From Escherichia coli (lineage in GTDB: Bacteria > Pseudomonadota > Gammaproteobacteria > Enterobacterales > Enterobacteriaceae), in NCBI RefSeq assembly GCF_041248615.1, contig NZ_CP158426.1: a stretch of 64,000 nucleotides of DNA; one strand, 5' to 3'. Below are positions 16,603 through 44,771 of the stretch, in pieces. Every line of letters starts with the position of its first letter. The stretch's first letter is position 1. The translations under genes were made by a program, and so were the position numbers. The notes under the pieces are model-generated. The model made no database searches and was not told the DNA's origin. It was given only the letters and a program-made list of their open reading frames with translations.

Positions 16603-16612
16603 AATTCATATA

Positions 16613-16640
16613 AACGGACCTCCACGGAGGTCCGTTTTTC
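16613..16640 (+). terminator. Rho-independent terminator after pheU
   Basis: aaacggacctcc-acgg-aggtccgttttt hairpin plus T-run immediately 3' of the tRNA. Confidence 0.8.
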
Positions 16641-22684: not shown

Positions 22685-22697
22685 TTAGCTCGTACAA

Positions 22698-22726
22698 GGG
22701 AAGTGGCTTGCCACTTCCCTTTTTTG
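22698..22726 (+). terminator. Rho-independent terminator after cadA
   Basis: gggaagtgg-cttg-ccacttccc stem-loop followed by tttttt. Confidence 0.8.
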
Positions 22727-24436: not shown

Positions 24437-25954
24437 ATGTCTGAACGAGAAACACGGGGAGCCAATGAGGCTATTGATTTTAACGATGAACTGAGAAATC
24501 GCCGCGAAAAACTGGCGGCACTACGTCAGCAAGGTGTGGCGTTTCCCAATGATTTTCGCCGCGACCATACCTCTGACCAGTTGCACGAAGAGTTTGATGC
24601 GAAGGATAACCAGGAACTGGAATCCTTAAACATTGAAGTCTCGGTTGCTGGCCGAATGATGACCCGTCGTATCATGGGGAAAGCCTCCTTTGTAACGTTG
24701 CAGGATGTCGGTGGCCGTATTCAACTGTACGTCGCACGAGATAGCCTGCCAGAAGGTGTTTATAACGATCAGTTTAAAAAATGGGATCTGGGTGACATTA
24801 TCGGTGCCCGCGGTACGCTGTTTAAGACGCAAACGGGTGAGCTTTCCATTCACTGTACTGAGCTGCGCCTGCTGACTAAAGCACTACGTCCTTTACCAGA
24901 TAAATTCCATGGTCTGCAGGATCAGGAAGTCCGTTATCGTCAACGTTATCTGGACCTCATCGCTAACGATAAATCCCGTCAAACGTTTGTTGTCCGTTCA
25001 AAAATTCTGGCCGCTATCCGTCAGTTCATGGTCGCGCGCGGCTTTATGGAAGTAGAAACCCCGATGATGCAGGTAATTCCAGGTGGGGCATCTGCTCGCC
25101 CGTTTATTACCCATCATAACGCTCTGGATTTAGATATGTACCTGCGTATCGCGCCAGAGCTGTATCTGAAACGTCTGGTTGTAGGCGGTTTTGAACGGGT
25201 ATTCGAAATCAACCGTAACTTCCGTAATGAAGGTATTTCTGTTCGCCATAATCCTGAGTTCACAATGATGGAACTCTACATGGCGTATGCGGATTACCAC
25301 GATTTGATTGAACTGACAGAGTCACTGTTCCGCACCCTGGCACAAGAGGTTCTGGGTACCACTAAAGTCACTTATGGCGAGCATGTGTTTGATTTCGGCA
25401 AACCGTTTGAAAAACTCACCATGCGCGAAGCAATCAAAAAATATCGTCCAGAAACCGATATGGCCGACCTGGATAATTTTGATGCCGCTAAAGCATTAGC
25501 TGAATCTATTGGTATTACGGTAGAGAAAAGCTGGGGGCTGGGACGTATTGTCACGGAGATCTTTGATGAAGTGGCAGAAGCACATCTGATTCAGCCAACC
25601 TTTATTACGGAATATCCCGCAGAAGTGTCACCGCTGGCGCGCCGTAATGATGTTAACCCGGAAATCACCGACCGATTTGAATTCTTCATCGGTGGTCGTG
25701 AAATCGGTAATGGTTTTAGCGAATTAAACGACGCAGAAGATCAGGCTGAACGTTTCCAGGAACAGGTTAACGCTAAAGCTGCAGGTGACGACGAAGCCAT
25801 GTTCTATGACGAAGATTACGTGACTGCGCTGGAATATGGTTTGCCACCAACCGCTGGTCTGGGTATTGGTATCGACCGAATGATTATGCTGTTTACAAAC
25901 AGTCATACTATTCGCGACGTTATTCTCTTCCCGGCGATGCGCCCACAGAAATAA
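24437..25954 (+). CDS. lysU: Lysyl-tRNA synthetase, inducible isoform LysU
   Basis: ORF 24410..25954; 505-aa protein from ATG 24437 ([33 protein letters not shown]…); assigned to lysU rather than lysS by locus context next to cadA/dtpC. Confidence 0.9.
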
Positions 25955-25975
25955 TTTTCACTTTAATGAACGAAG

Positions 25976-26010
25976 CAGTCAGGCGACTGCTTCGTTCATC
26001 ATTCCGCAAA
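25976..26010. terminator. Palindromic hairpin between convergent lysU and ghoT (possible bidirectional terminator)
   Basis: atgaacgaagcagtc-aggc-gactgcttcgttcat perfect 15-bp stem; no strong T-run on either side. Confidence 0.4.
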
Positions 26011-28754: not shown

Positions 28755-30386
28755 ATGAGACATTCATTGCCCTACCGCATGTTACGCAAACGTCCGATGA
28801 AATTGAGTACCACAGTGATCTTAATGGTCAGCGCGGTACTGTTCTCGGTGCTATTGGTGGTGCATCTGATTTACTTCTCGCAAATCAGTGATATGACGCG
28901 AGACGGGCTAGCCAACAAGGCACTGGCGGTGGCGCGTACCCTCGCCGACTCGCCGGAAATCCGTCAGGGCTTGCAGAAAAAACCGCAGGAGAGCGGCATC
29001 CAGGCCATCGCGGAAGCCGTGCGCAAACGCAACGATCTGCTGTTTATTGTCGTTACCGATATGCAAAGTCTTCGCTACTCGCATCCTGAAGCCCAGCGTA
29101 TTGGTCAGCCATTTAAAGGTGATGACATCCTTAAAGCGCTGAATGGCGAAGAAAATGTCGCTATCAATCGCGGTTTTCTGGCGCAGGCTTTACGCGTATT
29201 TACCCCCATCTACGATGAAAATCATAAGCAAATTGGCGTGGTGGCGATCGGCCTTGAGTTAAGCCGCGTGACCCAACAGATCAATGACAGTCGCTGGAGC
29301 ATTATCTGGTCGGTATTATTTGGCATGCTGGTCGGACTGATTGGCACCTGCATTCTGGTTAAAGTATTGAAAAAAATCCTTTTCGGCCTGGAACCCTACG
29401 AAATCTCCACGCTGTTTGAGCAACGCCAGGCCATGTTGCAGTCCATCAAAGAAGGCGTCGTTGCCGTGGACGATCGCGGCGAGGTCACGCTGATCAACGA
29501 TGCCGCACAAGAATTGCTGAATTACCGTAAGTCGCAGGACGATGAGAAGCTGTCGACGCTAAGCCACTCGTGGTCACAGGTAGTAGATGTCTCGGAAGTG
29601 TTACGCGACGGTACGCCGCGCCGCGACGAAGAGATTACGATTAAAGACCGGCTATTACTGATCAACACCGTTCCGGTGCGCAGTAATGGCGTTATCATCG
29701 GTGCCATTTCAACCTTCAGAGACAAAACTGAAGTACGTAAACTGATGCAGCGACTCGACGGTCTGGTCAACTATGCTGACGCACTTCGTGAACGATCCCA
29801 CGAATTTATGAATAAATTGCATGTGATTCTCGGATTATTGCATCTGAAGAGTTATAAGCAGTTGGAAGATTACATTCTCAAAACAGCCAATAACTATCAG
29901 GAAGAGATTGGCTCTCTGCTGGGTAAGATCAAATCTCCGGTTATCGCTGGTTTTTTAATCAGCAAGATTAACCGCGCGACCGATTTAGGCCATACGCTGA
30001 TTTTAAACAGTGAAAGCCAACTGCCAGACAGCGGCAGTGAGGACCAGGTCGCGACGCTGATTACCACATTGGGAAATCTGATAGAAAACGCGCTGGAAGC
30101 ATTAGGGCCGGAACCCGGAGGCGAAATTAGCGTAACATTGCACTACCGTCACGGCTGGCTGCACTGTGAAGTTAACGATGATGGACCGGGGATCGCACCC
30201 GACAAAATCGATCACATTTTTGACAAAGGTGTCTCGACAAAAGGAAGCGAGCGAGGCGTCGGTTTAGCACTTGTCAAACAACAGGTAGAAAATCTCGGCG
30301 GCAGCATCGCCGTGGAATCGGAACCCGGGATTTTCACACAATTTTTTGTCCAGATACCCTGGGACGGGGAGAGGTCGAACAGATGA
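28755..30386 (+). CDS. dcuS: C4-dicarboxylate sensor histidine kinase DcuS
   Basis: 543-aa ORF MRHSLPYRMLRKRPMKLSTTVILMVSAVLFSVLLVVHLIYF…. Confidence 0.95.
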   Translation: MRHSLPYRMLRKRPMKLSTTVILMVSAVLFSVLLVVHLIYFSQISDMTRDGLANKALAVARTLADSPEIRQGLQKKPQESGIQAIAEAVRKRNDLLFIVVTDMQSLRYSHPEAQRIGQPFKGDDILKALNGEENVAINRGFLAQALRVFTPIYDENHKQIGVVAIGLELSRVTQQINDSRWSIIWSVLFGMLVGLIGTCILVKVLKKILFGLEPYEISTLFEQRQAMLQSIKEGVVAVDDRGEVTLINDAAQELLNYRKSQDDEKLSTLSHSWSQVVDVSEVLRDGTPRRDEEITIKDRLLLINTVPVRSNGVIIGAISTFRDKTEVRKLMQRLDGLVNYADALRERSHEFMNKLHVILGLLHLKSYKQLEDYILKTANNYQEEIGSLLGKIKSPVIAGFLISKINRATDLGHTLILNSESQLPDSGSEDQVATLITTLGNLIENALEALGPEPGGEISVTLHYRHGWLHCEVNDDGPGIAPDKIDHIFDKGVSTKGSERGVGLALVKQQVENLGGSIAVESEPGIFTQFFVQIPWDGERSNR

Positions 30387-31102
30387 TCAATGTATTAATT
30401 ATCGATGACGACGCAATGGTCGCGGAGCTGAATCGCCGATACGTAGCACAAATCCCAGGCTTTCAATGCTGTGGAACAGCCTCGACGCTGGAGAAAGCCA
30501 AAGAGATTATCTTCAATAGCGATACGCCTATCGACCTGATATTGCTCGATATCTATATGCAAAAAGAGAACGGGCTCGATTTACTGCCTGTCCTGCATAA
30601 CGCGCGTTGCAAAAGTGATGTGATTGTCATCTCCTCCGCAGCCGATGCGGCAACCATTAAAGATTCCCTGCATTACGGTGTTGTGGATTACCTGATCAAA
30701 CCCTTCCAGGCTTCCCGCTTTGAAGAGGCGCTCACCGGCTGGCGGCAAAAGAAAATGGCGCTGGAAAAACATCAGTATTATGACCAGGCCGAGCTTGATC
30801 AGCTAATCCACGGCAGCAGCTCCAACGAGCAGGATCCTCGTCGCTTGCCAAAAGGCTTAACGCCGCAGACGTTACGCACGCTGTGCCAGTGGATTGACGC
30901 GCATCAGGACTATGAGTTTTCAACCGACGAGCTGGCTAACGAGGTTAACATCTCGCGTGTTTCCTGCCGAAAATACCTCATCTGGCTGGTCAACTGCCAC
31001 ATCTTGTTCACCAGTATCCATTATGGCGTCACAGGGCGTCCGGTTTACCGTTACCGTATTCAGGCAGAACACTACTCACTGCTGAAACAATATTGCCAAT
31101 AA
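30383..31102 (+). CDS. dcuR: C4-dicarboxylate response regulator DcuR
   Basis: 239-aa ORF MINVLIIDDDAMVAELNRRYVAQIPGF…; overlaps dcuS stop by 4 bp. Confidence 0.95.
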   Translation: MINVLIIDDDAMVAELNRRYVAQIPGFQCCGTASTLEKAKEIIFNSDTPIDLILLDIYMQKENGLDLLPVLHNARCKSDVIVISSAADAATIKDSLHYGVVDYLIKPFQASRFEEALTGWRQKKMALEKHQYYDQAELDQLIHGSSSNEQDPRRLPKGLTPQTLRTLCQWIDAHQDYEFSTDELANEVNISRVSCRKYLIWLVNCHILFTSIHYGVTGRPVYRYRIQAEHYSLLKQYCQ

Positions 31103-31672
31103 CGGATCGCTGGTTATCTGTAAGTAATAATTATTACCGTAATGCAAAATACCCCTGGCACAAGTTACATTCTTCATCAGTAAAACTTGTGCCAGATCAA
31201 ATATAATTATCCCTCCATCATCGTTAAAAATTAATATCTCTTCAGATGAACGGTGTTTTTAATTTCAAAACGCTAACAAAAGTTAATTAACTATTATGTC
31301 ACCCGCATTATGTGTATTTTTACCCACAAATGGGTAGATCAGATTAATCTATAAACCTAATGATATCTGCCCTGAGAACAAAAAATAGACCGATAAATAT
31401 CAATAAGATAACAGCAAACAAAACATTAACATCTGCGCAGTACAAACTATAAACCCATCGCCAGAGAGTTTTTCTCTCTGAAAAAGCCGCTTATCACAGT
31501 GCATAAATTTGCCGCTGCTTTAATCAGCCAATATTCACTGTGAGGTATTTGCTAAAGCCGGTAACGACCAAACGGATATTTAGTCAGGCTCTGAAAACAG
31601 TTCATACAAAACAGAACGTGACTGTGATCTATTCAGCAAAAATTTAAATAGGATTATCGCGAGGGTTCACAC

Positions 31673-33013
31673 ATGTTATTTACTATCCAACTTATCATAA
31701 TACTGATATGTCTGTTTTATGGTGCCAGAAAGGGTGGTATCGCGCTGGGTTTATTAGGCGGTATCGGTCTGGTCATTCTGGTCTTCGTCTTCCACCTTCA
31801 GCCAGGTAAACCACCGGTTGATGTCATGCTGGTTATCATTGCGGTGGTGGCGGCATCGGCGACCTTGCAAGCTTCGGGCGGTCTTGATGTCATGCTGCAA
31901 ATTGCCGAGAAGCTGCTGCGCCGCAACCCGAAATATGTCTCAATTGTCGCGCCGTTTGTGACCTGTACGCTGACCATTCTTTGCGGTACGGGTCATGTGG
32001 TTTACACCATTCTGCCGATCATCTACGACGTCGCCATTAAGAACAACATCCGTCCGGAACGCCCGATGGCGGCAAGTTCTATCGGTGCACAGATGGGGAT
32101 TATCGCCAGTCCGGTGTCGGTTGCAGTCGTGTCTCTGGTTGCGATGCTGGGTAATGTCACCTTTGATGGTCGCCATCTTGAGTTCCTCGACCTGCTAGCA
32201 ATCACCATTCCATCGACGTTAATCGGTATCCTGGCGATCGGTATCTTCAGCTGGTTCCGCGGTAAAGATCTGGATAAAGACGAAGAGTTCCAGAAATTCA
32301 TCTCCGTACCGGAAAACCGTGAGTATGTTTACGGTGATACCGCGACGCTGCTGGATAAAAAACTGCCGAAAAGCAACTGGCTTGCAATGTGGATCTTCCT
32401 CGGGGCAATCGCTGTAGTCGCCCTTCTTGGTGCTGATTCGGACCTGCGTCCATCCTTCGGTGGCAAACCGCTGTCGATGGTACTGGTTATTCAGATGTTT
32501 ATGCTGCTGACCGGGGCGCTGATTATTATCCTGACCAAAACCAATCCCGCGTCTATCTCAAAAAACGAAGTCTTCCGTTCCGGTATGATCGCCATCGTGG
32601 CGGTGTACGGTATCGCATGGATGGCAGAAACCATGTTTGGTGCCCATATGTCTGAAATTCAGGGCGTACTGGGTGAAATGGTGAAAGAGTATCCGTGGGC
32701 CTATGCCATTGTTCTGCTGCTGGTTTCCAAGTTTGTAAACTCTCAGGCTGCGGCGCTGGCGGCGATTGTTCCGGTCGCGCTGGCTATCGGCGTTGATCCG
32801 GCATACATCGTGGCTTCAGCACCGGCTTGCTACGGTTATTACATCCTGCCGACTTATCCGAGCGATCTGGCAGCGATTCAGTTTGACCGTTCCGGCACCA
32901 CCCACATCGGTCGCTTCGTCATCAACCACAGCTTTATTCTGCCGGGGTTGATTGGTGTGAGCGTATCGTGCGTCTTCGGCTGGATCTTCGCCGCGATGTA
33001 CGGGTTCTTATAA
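31673..33013 (+). CDS. dcuB: Anaerobic C4-dicarboxylate antiporter DcuB
   Basis: 446-aa [33 protein letters not shown]…; paralog of dcuA in this window. Confidence 0.95.
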
Positions 33014-35627: not shown

Positions 35628-37140
<1,513 letters not shown>

Positions 37141-38496
37141 TTAACGGTGCAACCAGCCTGGCAGCCAGTCGCCGTGGGCGGCAATCAGGTCGTCAACAAG
37201 AGCATATATTTCGTCAATGCCCAGCACGGCGGCAGTATGCGGGTCCATCATCGCGGCGTGGTAAACACGGTCGCGATTTTCCGTAAGAATAGCTTCAGTC
37301 AGCAGCGTCTGTACGTTGATGTTGGTTTGCATCAGGGCGGCCAGATGCGAAGGTAGCGTACCGACTTTGGTCGGCTGAATGCCATTAGCATCAACCAGAC
37401 AGGCTACTTCCACGCAACATCCTTGTGGCAGGTTATCAATCAAACCCTCGTTACGGACGTTGCCGTAAATCACACTCGGCTCGCCAGTCCAGATAGCGTT
37501 CATGATTGTGCTGGCATATTCCCGTGACGGTTTAATATCAATCCGGGAGGCGTTTTTATACTCCTCCAGCTCTTTATGCCAGTTCGCCAGCTGCTCGACG
37601 CAGCGTTTCGGGTACTCATCCAGCGGTACTTTATAACGCTCAATCAAATCCTCACGACCTGGCTTAATAAACCACGGTGTGTACTCAGCAAAATGTTCTG
37701 ACGATTCCGTGACGAAGTAGCCCAGCTTTTTGAACATTTCGTAGCGCACAATATTCTGGCAGCGAGTATTGCCATGAATATTCGGCTTCGGTGCCTGCCC
37801 TGCTTCATAAGCCGCCAGCAGTTCCGGGTAGAGATTCACGTAACTGCCGTCGGCGGTTTTGCGCTCCAGTTCCAGGTAAAACGCCATATGGTTGATACCT
37901 GCGCAACGGTAACGCAGCGTAGCCGGGTCGATATTGAGGTCACGCGCCAGCTCTTCCGCCGTTCCCTGCACCGAATGGCACAGCCCGACCTGTTTGATAT
38001 GCGGATAGCGGGCATACATCGCCCAGGTATTCATCGCCATTGGGTTAACGTAGTTGAGCATGGTGGCATCGGGGCAGACTTCCGTCATGTCCTCGCAAAT
38101 TTGCCACAGGTGCGGAATGGTACGTAGCGCGCGCATAATACCGCCCGGCCCCAACGTATCGGCAATGGTTTGTTCCAGACCATGCCGCTTACAGACCTCG
38201 AAATCAGTCACCGTGCAAGGTTCATAACCGCCAATCTGAAATGCCACCACCACAAAATCGGCATCCTGTAAGGCTTCTTTCTGTTGGGTGTGGCAGGTGA
38301 TTTTGCCGCTGGCCCCTGCTGAATCCATCAGCTTACGCACCACAATGTGCGACTCTTCCAGGCGGGTGGGATCAATGTCCATCAGGGCAATATGCGCCGT
38401 TTTCAGCGCCTCGCGATGGAACACATCACCAAGAATATTTTTAACGAAAATCGTCGAACCAGCGCCGATAAATGTAATTTTGGGTGCAGACATCAT
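37141..38496 (-). CDS. melA: Alpha-galactosidase MelA (NAD/Mn-dependent, GH4)
   Basis: 451-aa ORF MMSAPKITFIGAGSTIFVKNILGDVFHREALK…. Confidence 0.95.
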   Translation of the reverse strand: MMSAPKITFIGAGSTIFVKNILGDVFHREALKTAHIALMDIDPTRLEESHIVVRKLMDSAGASGKITCHTQQKEALQDADFVVVAFQIGGYEPCTVTDFEVCKRHGLEQTIADTLGPGGIMRALRTIPHLWQICEDMTEVCPDATMLNYVNPMAMNTWAMYARYPHIKQVGLCHSVQGTAEELARDLNIDPATLRYRCAGINHMAFYLELERKTADGSYVNLYPELLAAYEAGQAPKPNIHGNTRCQNIVRYEMFKKLGYFVTESSEHFAEYTPWFIKPGREDLIERYKVPLDEYPKRCVEQLANWHKELEEYKNASRIDIKPSREYASTIMNAIWTGEPSVIYGNVRNEGLIDNLPQGCCVEVACLVDANGIQPTKVGTLPSHLAALMQTNINVQTLLTEAILTENRDRVYHAAMMDPHTAAVLGIDEIYALVDDLIAAHGDWLPGWLHR

Positions 38497-38574
38497 GCAG
38501 ATCTCCTGGCTTGCTTGAATAACTTCATCATGGCAGGCGAATCTGCAGAAAACCTCCGGCTTCCAGGTTGAGCA

Positions 38575-38628
38575 TTCCCATAAACTCAGATCCTGCGTGA
38601 AGCAGCAGTAAATCTGAGTTTATGGGAA
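38575..38628. promoter_or_regulatory. MelR operator: inverted 18-bp repeats (ttcccataaactcagatc / gatctgagtttatgggaa-like) in the melA-melR divergent promoter region
   Basis: Perfect 15-bp inverted repeat cccataaactcagat (38577-38591) / atctgagtttatggg (38612-38626) read directly; matches recalled MelR-site arrangement. Confidence 0.6.
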
Positions 38629-38778
38629 TAAGTTACCTGAAAAGCAGAGTTTTCGGCCTCATGATGCTCGGACGCTCCCCTCGCCGCTGTGGGAAGAGGG
38701 TGAAAACCGTGCTCCCACTCGCAGTCATCCTCCCTCACTCCTGCCATAATTCTGATATTCCAGGAAAGAGAGCCATCC

Positions 38779-39687
38779 ATGAATACAGATACGTTTATGT
38801 GCAGCAGCGACGAAAAACAGACCCGCAGCCCGCTGTCGCTGTATTCGGAATACCAGCGGATGGAGATTGAGTTTCGCTCACCGCATATCATGCCCACCAG
38901 CCACTGGCATGGTCAGGTCGAAGTGAATGTGCCTTTCGATGGCGATGTGGAATACCTGATCAACAATGAAAAAGTGAGTATCAATCAGGGACATATCACG
39001 CTGTTCTGGGCCTGTACACCGCACCAACTAACAGATACCGGAACCTGTCAGAGCATGGCGATTTTTAATCTGCCGATGCATCTGTTTCTCTCCTGGCCGC
39101 TGGATAAAGACCTGATTAACCACGTCACTCACGGCATGGTGATCAAATCACTGGCGACACAGCAACTTAGTCCGTTTGAAGTGCGCCGCTGGCAGCAGGA
39201 ATTAAACAGTCCGAATGAGCAAATTCGCCAGCTCGCCATTGATGAAATTGGCCTGATGCTCAAGCGATTTAGCCTCTCTGGCTGGGAACCGATTCTGGTC
39301 AATAAAACCTCGCGCACACACAAAAACAGCGTCTCGCGCCATGCGCAATTTTATGTCAGCCAGATGCTGGGCTTTATTGCCGAAAACTATGATCAGGCGC
39401 TGACCATCAACGATGTGGCTGAGCACGTCAAACTTAACGCCAACTATGCAATGGGGATATTCCAGCGGGTCATGCAATTGACGATGAAACAGTACATTAC
39501 CGCGATGCGCATCAACCACGTTCGCGCGTTACTGAGCGATACCGATAAAAGTATTCTCGATATTGCCCTGACGGCAGGCTTTCGTTCAAGTAGTCGTTTT
39601 TACAGCACGTTCGGCAAATATGTCGGCATGTCGCCGCAACAATACCGCAAACTTAGCCGACAGCGCCGCCAGACGTTTCCCGGCTAA
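38779..39687 (+). CDS. melR: AraC-family melibiose operon activator MelR
   Basis: 302-aa ORF MNTDTFMCSSDEKQTRSPLSLYSEYQRMEIEFRSPHIMPTSHWHGQVEVN…. Confidence 0.95.
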   Translation: MNTDTFMCSSDEKQTRSPLSLYSEYQRMEIEFRSPHIMPTSHWHGQVEVNVPFDGDVEYLINNEKVSINQGHITLFWACTPHQLTDTGTCQSMAIFNLPMHLFLSWPLDKDLINHVTHGMVIKSLATQQLSPFEVRRWQQELNSPNEQIRQLAIDEIGLMLKRFSLSGWEPILVNKTSRTHKNSVSRHAQFYVSQMLGFIAENYDQALTINDVAEHVKLNANYAMGIFQRVMQLTMKQYITAMRINHVRALLSDTDKSILDIALTAGFRSSSRFYSTFGKYVGMSPQQYRKLSRQRRQTFPG

Positions 39688-44714: not shown

Positions 44715-44754
44715 TTCCCCTTAATCCAGCAAACATAAAAGCCAACCTTAAGAA

Positions 44755-44771
44755 CTTAAGGTTGGCTTAAT
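44755..44771 (+). promoter_or_regulatory. PmrA (BasR) box CTTAAG-N5-CTTAAT upstream of eptA
   Basis: cttaag gttgg cttaat read directly 47-63 bp upstream of eptA ATG; first half-site lies inside the palindrome aagccaaccttaagaacttaaggttggctt (44739-44768), which could also act as the adiC terminator. Confidence 0.65.

Follow-up and report, generated by a model that had tools for sequence, protein, structure and literature searches.

The melAB/melR control region of Escherichia coli is said to have been studied by the Busby laboratory in work running from Webster (1987-89) through Belyaeva (2000), Wade (2000/2001) and Grainger (2003) to Samarasinghe (2008). We take the published centers of its elements to be -42.5 for Site 2', -81.5 for CRP1, -100.5 for Site 1 and -120.5 for Site 1', with -238.5 as a further published position, all presumably from Belyaeva et al. 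2000 / Wade et al. 2000. In Samarasinghe et al. 2008, the 18-bp MelR sites are named 2', 2, 1, 1' and R; binding was mapped in K-12 MG1655, where each 18-bp site is occupied by one MelR monomer (PMC2377442). According to the same paper, Sites 1 and 2 share one 18-bp consensus MelR sequence, a CRP site, CRP1, is located between them, and the consensus G residues at positions 5 and 13 are contacted by the MelR residues N222 and R273 (PMC2377442). It also provides three independent positional anchors, namely the melR -10 hexamer CATAAT, the placement of Site 2 (center -174.5 relative to melR +1), and the location of the melR start 237 bp upstream of the melAB start (PMC2377442). This is one of the best-studied activator-site arrangements of E. 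coli, and it serves as a model both for two-activator co-dependent promoters and for autoregulation in the AraC family.

The araC-araBAD system resembles mel in that the gene of an AraC-family regulator lies divergent from its sugar operon. Going by PMC2377442, the likeness extends to a weak promoter-proximal half-site that is filled in a ligand-dependent manner, to CRP co-dependence and to autorepression through distant sites. The araC-araBAD elements comprise the I1-I2 activation half-sites, the distal O2, a CRP site and the divergent, autoregulated regulator gene. The two systems differ in geometry: AraC relies on half-sites of 17 bp in direct repeat and on a two-molecule loop, whereas MelR uses two identical 18-bp inverted sites flanking CRP, and its repression complex comprises four molecules and is not a simple loop.

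The window analyzed here (the whole stretch of 64,000 nucleotides) harbors a frameshifted melB, melA, melR, adiA, adiY and adiC, and its melA-melR intergenic region measures 282 bp (38497-38778). Within this region lies an 18-bp perfect inverted repeat, whose left arm ATTCCCATAAACTCAGAT (38574-38591) and right arm ATCTGAGTTTATGGGAAT (38612-38629) are separated by the 20-bp spacer CCTGCGTGAAGCAGCAGTAA (38592-38611), placing the dyad axis at 38601.5. A first-pass annotation had already reported perfect inverted arms around a 20-bp spacer at this place, which is correct, but with an arm length of 15 bp, which is not: the 15-mers it gave correspond to the innermost 15 bases on either side, its interval 38575-38628 misses one base at each end, and its spacer string tcctgcgtgaagcagcagta is shifted by one base relative to the actual one. 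We identify the repeat, with a confidence close to certainty, as MelR Site 2 (left arm) and MelR Site 1 (right arm), the identical high-affinity sites of the divergent melAB/melR control region. The Site 2/Site 1 pair is already known and long characterized, and is ordinary textbook regulatory DNA, so that the gain here consists of exact window coordinates for all mel control elements and little beyond correct annotation. The features of the locus are as follows.

35628-37038, minus strand: melB pseudogene, with 11 bp missing at 36372/36373 compared with K-12 and a product ending at residue 224 of 473
37141-38496, minus strand: melA, intact, encoding an alpha-galactosidase of 451 amino acids (NCBIfam NF011657, 736 bits)
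38520, minus strand: presumed melAB transcript start (an A on the minus strand), set by the 237 bp from the melR start given in PMC2377442
38527-38532, minus strand: melAB -10 region, with the hexamer CATGAT assigned by position only
38554-38571, unstranded: degenerate MelR Site 2' region, placed by arithmetic from the center -42.5 that we take to be published; overlaps the melAB -35 region
38574-38591, minus strand: MelR Site 2, reading the consensus ATCTGAGTTTATGGGAAT on the minus strand; center at -62.5 relative to melAB +1 and at -174.5 relative to melR +1
38592-38611, unstranded: spacer with the weak CRP site CRP1 (CRP1 22-mer at 38591-38612); dyad axis at -81.5 from the melAB start
38612-38629, plus strand: MelR Site 1, ATCTGAGTTTATGGGAAT, a perfect 18-bp arm identical to K-12; center at -100.5 from the melAB start
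38632-38649, unstranded: degenerate MelR Site 1' region, placed from the presumed published center -120.5; differs from K-12 by a single SNP, with G in place of A at 38632
38705-38726, unstranded: CRP2, centered 41.5 bp upstream of the melR start as in PMC2377442, with 7 of 10 core positions
38745-38750, plus strand: melR -10 hexamer CATAAT, a sequence given in PMC2377442 and PMC6392122; it occurs once in the intergenic region
38750-38767, plus strand: MelR Site R (autorepression), TTCTGATATTCCAGGAAA; overlaps the melR start and matches the consensus at 11 of 18 positions
38757, plus strand: melR transcript start (A), from the CATAAT anchor
38779-39687, plus strand: melR, intact, encoding an AraC-family regulator of 302 amino acids (NCBIfam NF007693 equivalog, 633 bits against a cut-off of 253)

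The assignment of the arms is based on positional arithmetic and on statements in the text of PMC2377442 rather than on the site sequence printed there; the arm sequence itself, looked for in the full text of the literature, gave no match. When the position of Site 2 was predicted from the three anchors of that source, it fell at 38574-38591, exactly the left arm, and the G residues at positions 5 and 13 are present in both arms. From inside melA through the melAB promoter to both arms and the spacer (38470-38631), the window is 100% identical to K-12 MG1655, and the K-12 results therefore apply directly. The comparison with K-12 showed the same locus with identical Site 2', Site 2, CRP1 spacer and Site 1, and likewise identical CATAAT, Site R and CRP2, with all published distances fitting. 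The first difference is the SNP in Site 1' (38632 G for A); six substitutions follow at 38666-38689, between Site 1' and CRP2, and the sequences are identical again from 38690 through the melR start. The intergenic SNPs, the MelR substitutions and the melB frameshift all lie outside the repeat. MelR itself differs from its K-12 counterpart by A34S, N67S and Q294R, all outside the contact residues, and retains N222 and R273. Because the DNA is identical and MelR nearly identical to K-12, MelR would be expected to bind both arms in this strain as well.

The earlier reading of the repeat as a MelR site in the melA-melR divergent region is thus borne out by the identity to K-12 and by the anchors in PMC2377442. 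It had been made conditional on published footprints not placing MelR elsewhere with the repeat left unprotected; the DNase I footprints and gel shifts described there put MelR on sites 1/1', 2 and R (PMC2377442), so this objection does not apply. The term operator, which had been used for the repeat, is loose: the arms are mainly activator sites of melAB with a CRP site between them, and they also reinforce melR autorepression together with Site R.

Extending the comparison across species, we searched with the 18-mer half-site alone against one genome per species, so that the partner arm remained independently testable. The search returned 21 matches, 15 of them in Enterobacterales species (Escherichia, Citrobacter, Kluyvera, Cedecea, Pluralibacter, Serratia and one further genus). 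All 15 adjoin melA, and also melR wherever the fetched DNA extends that far, while the 6 other matches fall in unrelated phyla, lack melA and melR, and show a partner arm matching at only 3-6 of 18 positions, which is chance level. The comparison then covered 19 mel regions, among them K-12 and two divergent E. coli alleles. Site 2 was exact in 16 of these 19 sequences and Site 1 matched at 14-18 of 18 positions in the other Enterobacterales, with the partner arm matching at 14-18 of 18 positions over the whole set. Sixteen sequences had a spacer of 20 bp and three had one of 21 bp; in the 16 sequences whose extraction began at the melA ATG, Site 2 lay 77-79 bp away from it. Set against the window, the arms were identical at 32-36 of 36 positions, and the spacer at 5-9 of 20 outside Escherichia, which is near random. 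Positions 5 and 13 were invariant in all 38 half-sites, with variation concentrated mostly at positions 8, 11, 17 and 18. Within E. coli, the intergenic region was found in 5400 of 5426 complete genomes, once per genome and at the same locus.

These data bear directly on the possibility that the repeat is a chance palindrome or the remnant of a mobile element (the terminal inverted repeats of a MITE or of an IS fragment) devoid of a regulatory role. Short inverted repeats are indeed common at IS ends; beyond this, nothing specific favors such an origin. The melA-melR repeat is the only perfect inverted repeat of at least 18 bp with a spacer of up to 40 bp in the 64-kb window, where ~4e-5 such repeats are expected in random sequence, which speaks against chance. 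The arm 18-mer occurs in 2 copies at up to 3 mismatches, compared with 0.04 from shuffles, and is found in the window at this locus only. A mobile origin is further contradicted by the single-copy state and constant location of the intergenic region in E. coli, by the retention of the repeat, from Escherichia to Serratia, in the melA-melR interval and at a constant distance from the melA ATG, and by the species scan, in which the 18-mer appeared at mel loci plus the 6 unrelated chance matches without a partner arm. Neither transposase genes nor target-site duplications were found nearby. We accordingly consider an origin by chance or transposition extremely improbable, and retain the pair of MelR sites as the identity of the repeat.

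Another possibility is that the repeat works as a nucleic-acid structure, forming a cruciform in the DNA or, as RNA, a hairpin of the terminator, attenuator or small-RNA type. Folding of the strand gives a stem of 18 bp at -41 kcal/mol (z = -8.4 relative to shuffles), a stability that any perfect inverted repeat would show automatically. According to PMC2377442, the repeat sits between the divergent starts (minus-strand 38520 and plus-strand 38757) and would be transcribed from neither mapped promoter. Signs of an intrinsic terminator or structured RNA were not found: neither arm is followed by a T-run, the search for terminator-like sites gave none, and the Rfam matches were microRNA precursors only, at 21-26 bits against gathering scores of 102-135. 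The substitution pattern argues in the same direction, since all arm changes in the other species and in the divergent E. coli alleles were one-sided and none of them was compensatory in the 19 sequences. This set was partly ascertained on one exact arm, which biases it against compensated double changes; the divergent E. coli alleles, ascertained otherwise, also displayed one-sided changes only. Judged from the aligned sequences, the pattern is the signature expected of two independently recognized protein half-sites held at a fixed distance and not that of a hairpin. A structural role of the repeat therefore appears very improbable, if marginally less so than an origin by chance or transposition, and the two-site MelR assignment stands.

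Regarding the divergent intergenic allele, it is carried by ~1,000 of 5,400 E. coli genomes at 80-90% identity. Its arms exhibit 0-4 one-sided changes, its spacer and the segment corresponding to 38655-38705 are heavily substituted, and Site R, the melR -10 hexamer and the melAB core promoter are almost unchanged. NZ_CP043487.1 (E. coli AQ15), one of a small number of E. coli assemblies matching the mel intergenic region only in part, shows dozens of tiny gene fragments annotated as 'partial in the middle of a contig', a mosaic that looks like an assembly artefact rather than biology.

Being a palindrome, the repeat could in principle be bound by another dimeric regulator, such as CRP alone or a LacI/GalR-type repressor, with MelR bound elsewhere. 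Two-fold symmetry is what a dimeric helix-turn-helix protein would call for, and the dyad center is indeed bound by CRP. The arms are nevertheless separated by 38 bp from center to center, too wide for a single conventional dimer, and no LacI-family gene is adjacent. Moreover, mutagenesis, FeBABE cleavage and footprinting tie the 18-bp boxes to MelR, and the CRP site is located in the spacer and not in the arms (PMC2377442). Recognition of the arms by a different dimer is hence scarcely credible, which again leaves MelR as their ligand.

The CRP site of the spacer is itself weak. On the dyad axis, the CRP1 22-mer matches the CRP consensus AAATGTGATCTAGATCACATTT at 5 of 10 core positions, and in the genera scored outside Escherichia (Kluyvera, Citrobacter, Cedecea, Pluralibacter and Serratia) the dyad-centered match reached 0-5 of 10 core positions, no better than background. 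CRP1 may be lineage-specific, or wholly reliant on contacts with MelR. Because the spacing and the inverted pair are kept from Escherichia to Serratia with no recognizable CRP site in the spacer of other genera, one may go further and propose that the spacer CRP site is an Escherichia-specific addition to an ancestral inverted pair with a CRP-independent MelR-MelR architecture; in a related proposal, Sites 1' and 2' may be read in an orientation or register other than the assumed one. We regard this as a rather unlikely, though not negligible, scenario. The identity of the repeat as Sites 2 and 1 is unaffected by the questions of CRP1 origin and of 1'/2' orientation.

The remaining control elements of the intergenic region were located in the same manner. 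Site R has the G at position 5 and the non-consensus A at position 13 described in PMC2377442, its orientation is opposite to that of Site 2, matching the same source, and its core TTCTGAT...CAGGAA is kept across genera. CRP2, described in the same paper as essential for melR transcription (PMC2377442), ties with 38687-38708 as the best CRP-like 22-mer of the intergenic region. Site 2', reported there to be occupied only with melibiose (PMC2377442), matches the consensus at 7 of 18 positions on the plus strand and 3 of 18 on the minus strand, and its region carries a cross-species footprint of the conserved blocks AAAAC, TCC and TTCC. Site 1' scores 11 of 18 on the minus strand and 4 of 18 on the plus strand, and includes most of a block, AAAAGCAGAG (38641-38650), that is almost invariant from Escherichia to Serratia. 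As a side observation, both Site 1' and Site 2' give their best consensus score when read in opposition to the adjoining strong site, and direct-orientation matches lie 11 bp further out, at 38643-38660 on the plus strand (10 of 18) and 38543-38560 on the minus strand (9 of 18). Their orientation has reportedly been established by experiment (Grainger et al. 2003); further papers that mention MelR gave no indication of how the sites are oriented.

A motif scan for additional strong MelR half-sites close to the melA start, which had been suggested previously, found none. Besides the arms, the best matches in the intergenic region reach 11 of 18 and comprise Site 1', Site R and one match over the melR ATG. 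Since a score of 11 of 18 is expected ~0.7 times by chance in a region of this size, the weak MelR sites are recognizable only by their published positions and their cross-species conservation. No consensus promoter site was detected in the intergenic region, and the missing consensus sigma-70 promoters fit with two activator-dependent promoters.

Transferred to this strain by virtue of sequence identity, the K-12 model described in PMC2377442 would operate as follows. Without melibiose, MelR monomers would occupy Sites 2, 1, 1' and R, leaving the system poised, and the upstream sites would reinforce the Site R-bound MelR so that melR is repressed through a four-molecule complex. Once melibiose is present, Site 2', the degenerate site at the melAB -35 region, would also be filled, and four MelR molecules together with one CRP dimer in the spacer would then activate melAB. 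We further propose that the inverted geometry may serve to set two MelR pairs symmetrically about the two-fold-symmetric CRP dimer, so that the 1'-1-CRP-2-2' array would constitute a pseudo-palindrome centered at 38601.5. Outside the perfect arms, weaker dyad symmetry indeed extends outward over 42-nt arms (38550-38591 and 38612-38653, 76% complementarity), and this extended pseudo-palindrome (38550-38653) is consistent with MelR pairs symmetric about CRP. In this strain, melA should remain inducible through these sites, and melB, downstream in the same operon, would give a truncated, presumably inactive transporter.

The state of the surrounding genes had also been described previously, with melR and melA taken as intact and melB as frameshifted, and both descriptions were confirmed. 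MelA and MelR are full-length products with the NCBIfam matches given above, and MelA departs from its K-12 counterpart at three amino acids, with no stop codon inside the frame. Alignment to K-12 melB together with translation revealed the 11-bp deletion, and the two halves of the melB reading frame (36364-37062 and 35628-36341, both on the minus strand) correspond to positions 1-222 and 237-473 of NF007749. Downstream of melR lie adiA, an AraC-family gene at the adiY position, and adiC; the AraC-family gene is named adiY by synteny, having no NCBIfam model above cut-off.

The junction created by the 11-bp deletion was found at 99% identity or higher in 33 complete E. coli genomes, and the same locus is annotated as 'frameshifted' in NZ_OW967178.1. 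Two genomes match the window at 100% identity throughout the 4.2-kb melB-melA-melR segment, and the next-best ones reach 99.7% over 4212 bp, the difference being the 11 bp and essentially nothing else. With nothing but these 11 bp separating the window from its closest complete genomes across 4.2 kb, the melB lesion is, on this sequence comparison, very recent. The first-pass annotation had emphasized that the regulatory architecture was preserved even though the transporter was disrupted; this carries no weight, since the deletion is too recent for decay and melA and melR, which need the same sites, are intact. For these same reasons the intact regulatory DNA says nothing on selection, and the combination of intact regulation with a broken transporter reflects a very recent 11-bp deletion in melB, not selective retention of regulatory DNA. 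More generally, the state of melB is variable in E. coli: ~1,300 of 5,426 genomes have no match to a 200-bp melB segment, and in strain 2016C-3878, with an identical intergenic region, melB is absent and yjdF abuts melA. A parallel is provided by Salmonella ST313, in which loss of melibiose transport genes has been documented (PMC6333337).

Several shorter inverted repeats were also detected in the window. A perfect 12-bp inverted repeat with an 18-nt spacer and no subsequent T-run, CTGGCACAAGTT / AACTTGTGCCAG, occupies 31155-31196, between open reading frames at the positions of dcuR (30383-31102) and dcuB (31673-33013), names that are drawn from frame sizes and K-12 synteny only. It might represent either a regulator site ahead of dcuB or an element of the terminator type. 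The remaining perfect inverted repeats of at least 12 bp, at 16612-16637, 22696-22721, 25966-26003 and 44739-44771, look like ordinary intrinsic terminators, with G+C-rich stems, short loops and a T-run in three of the four. The repeat at 25966 comes after a 514-aa open reading frame ending at 25954, and the one at 44739 follows the adiC stop.
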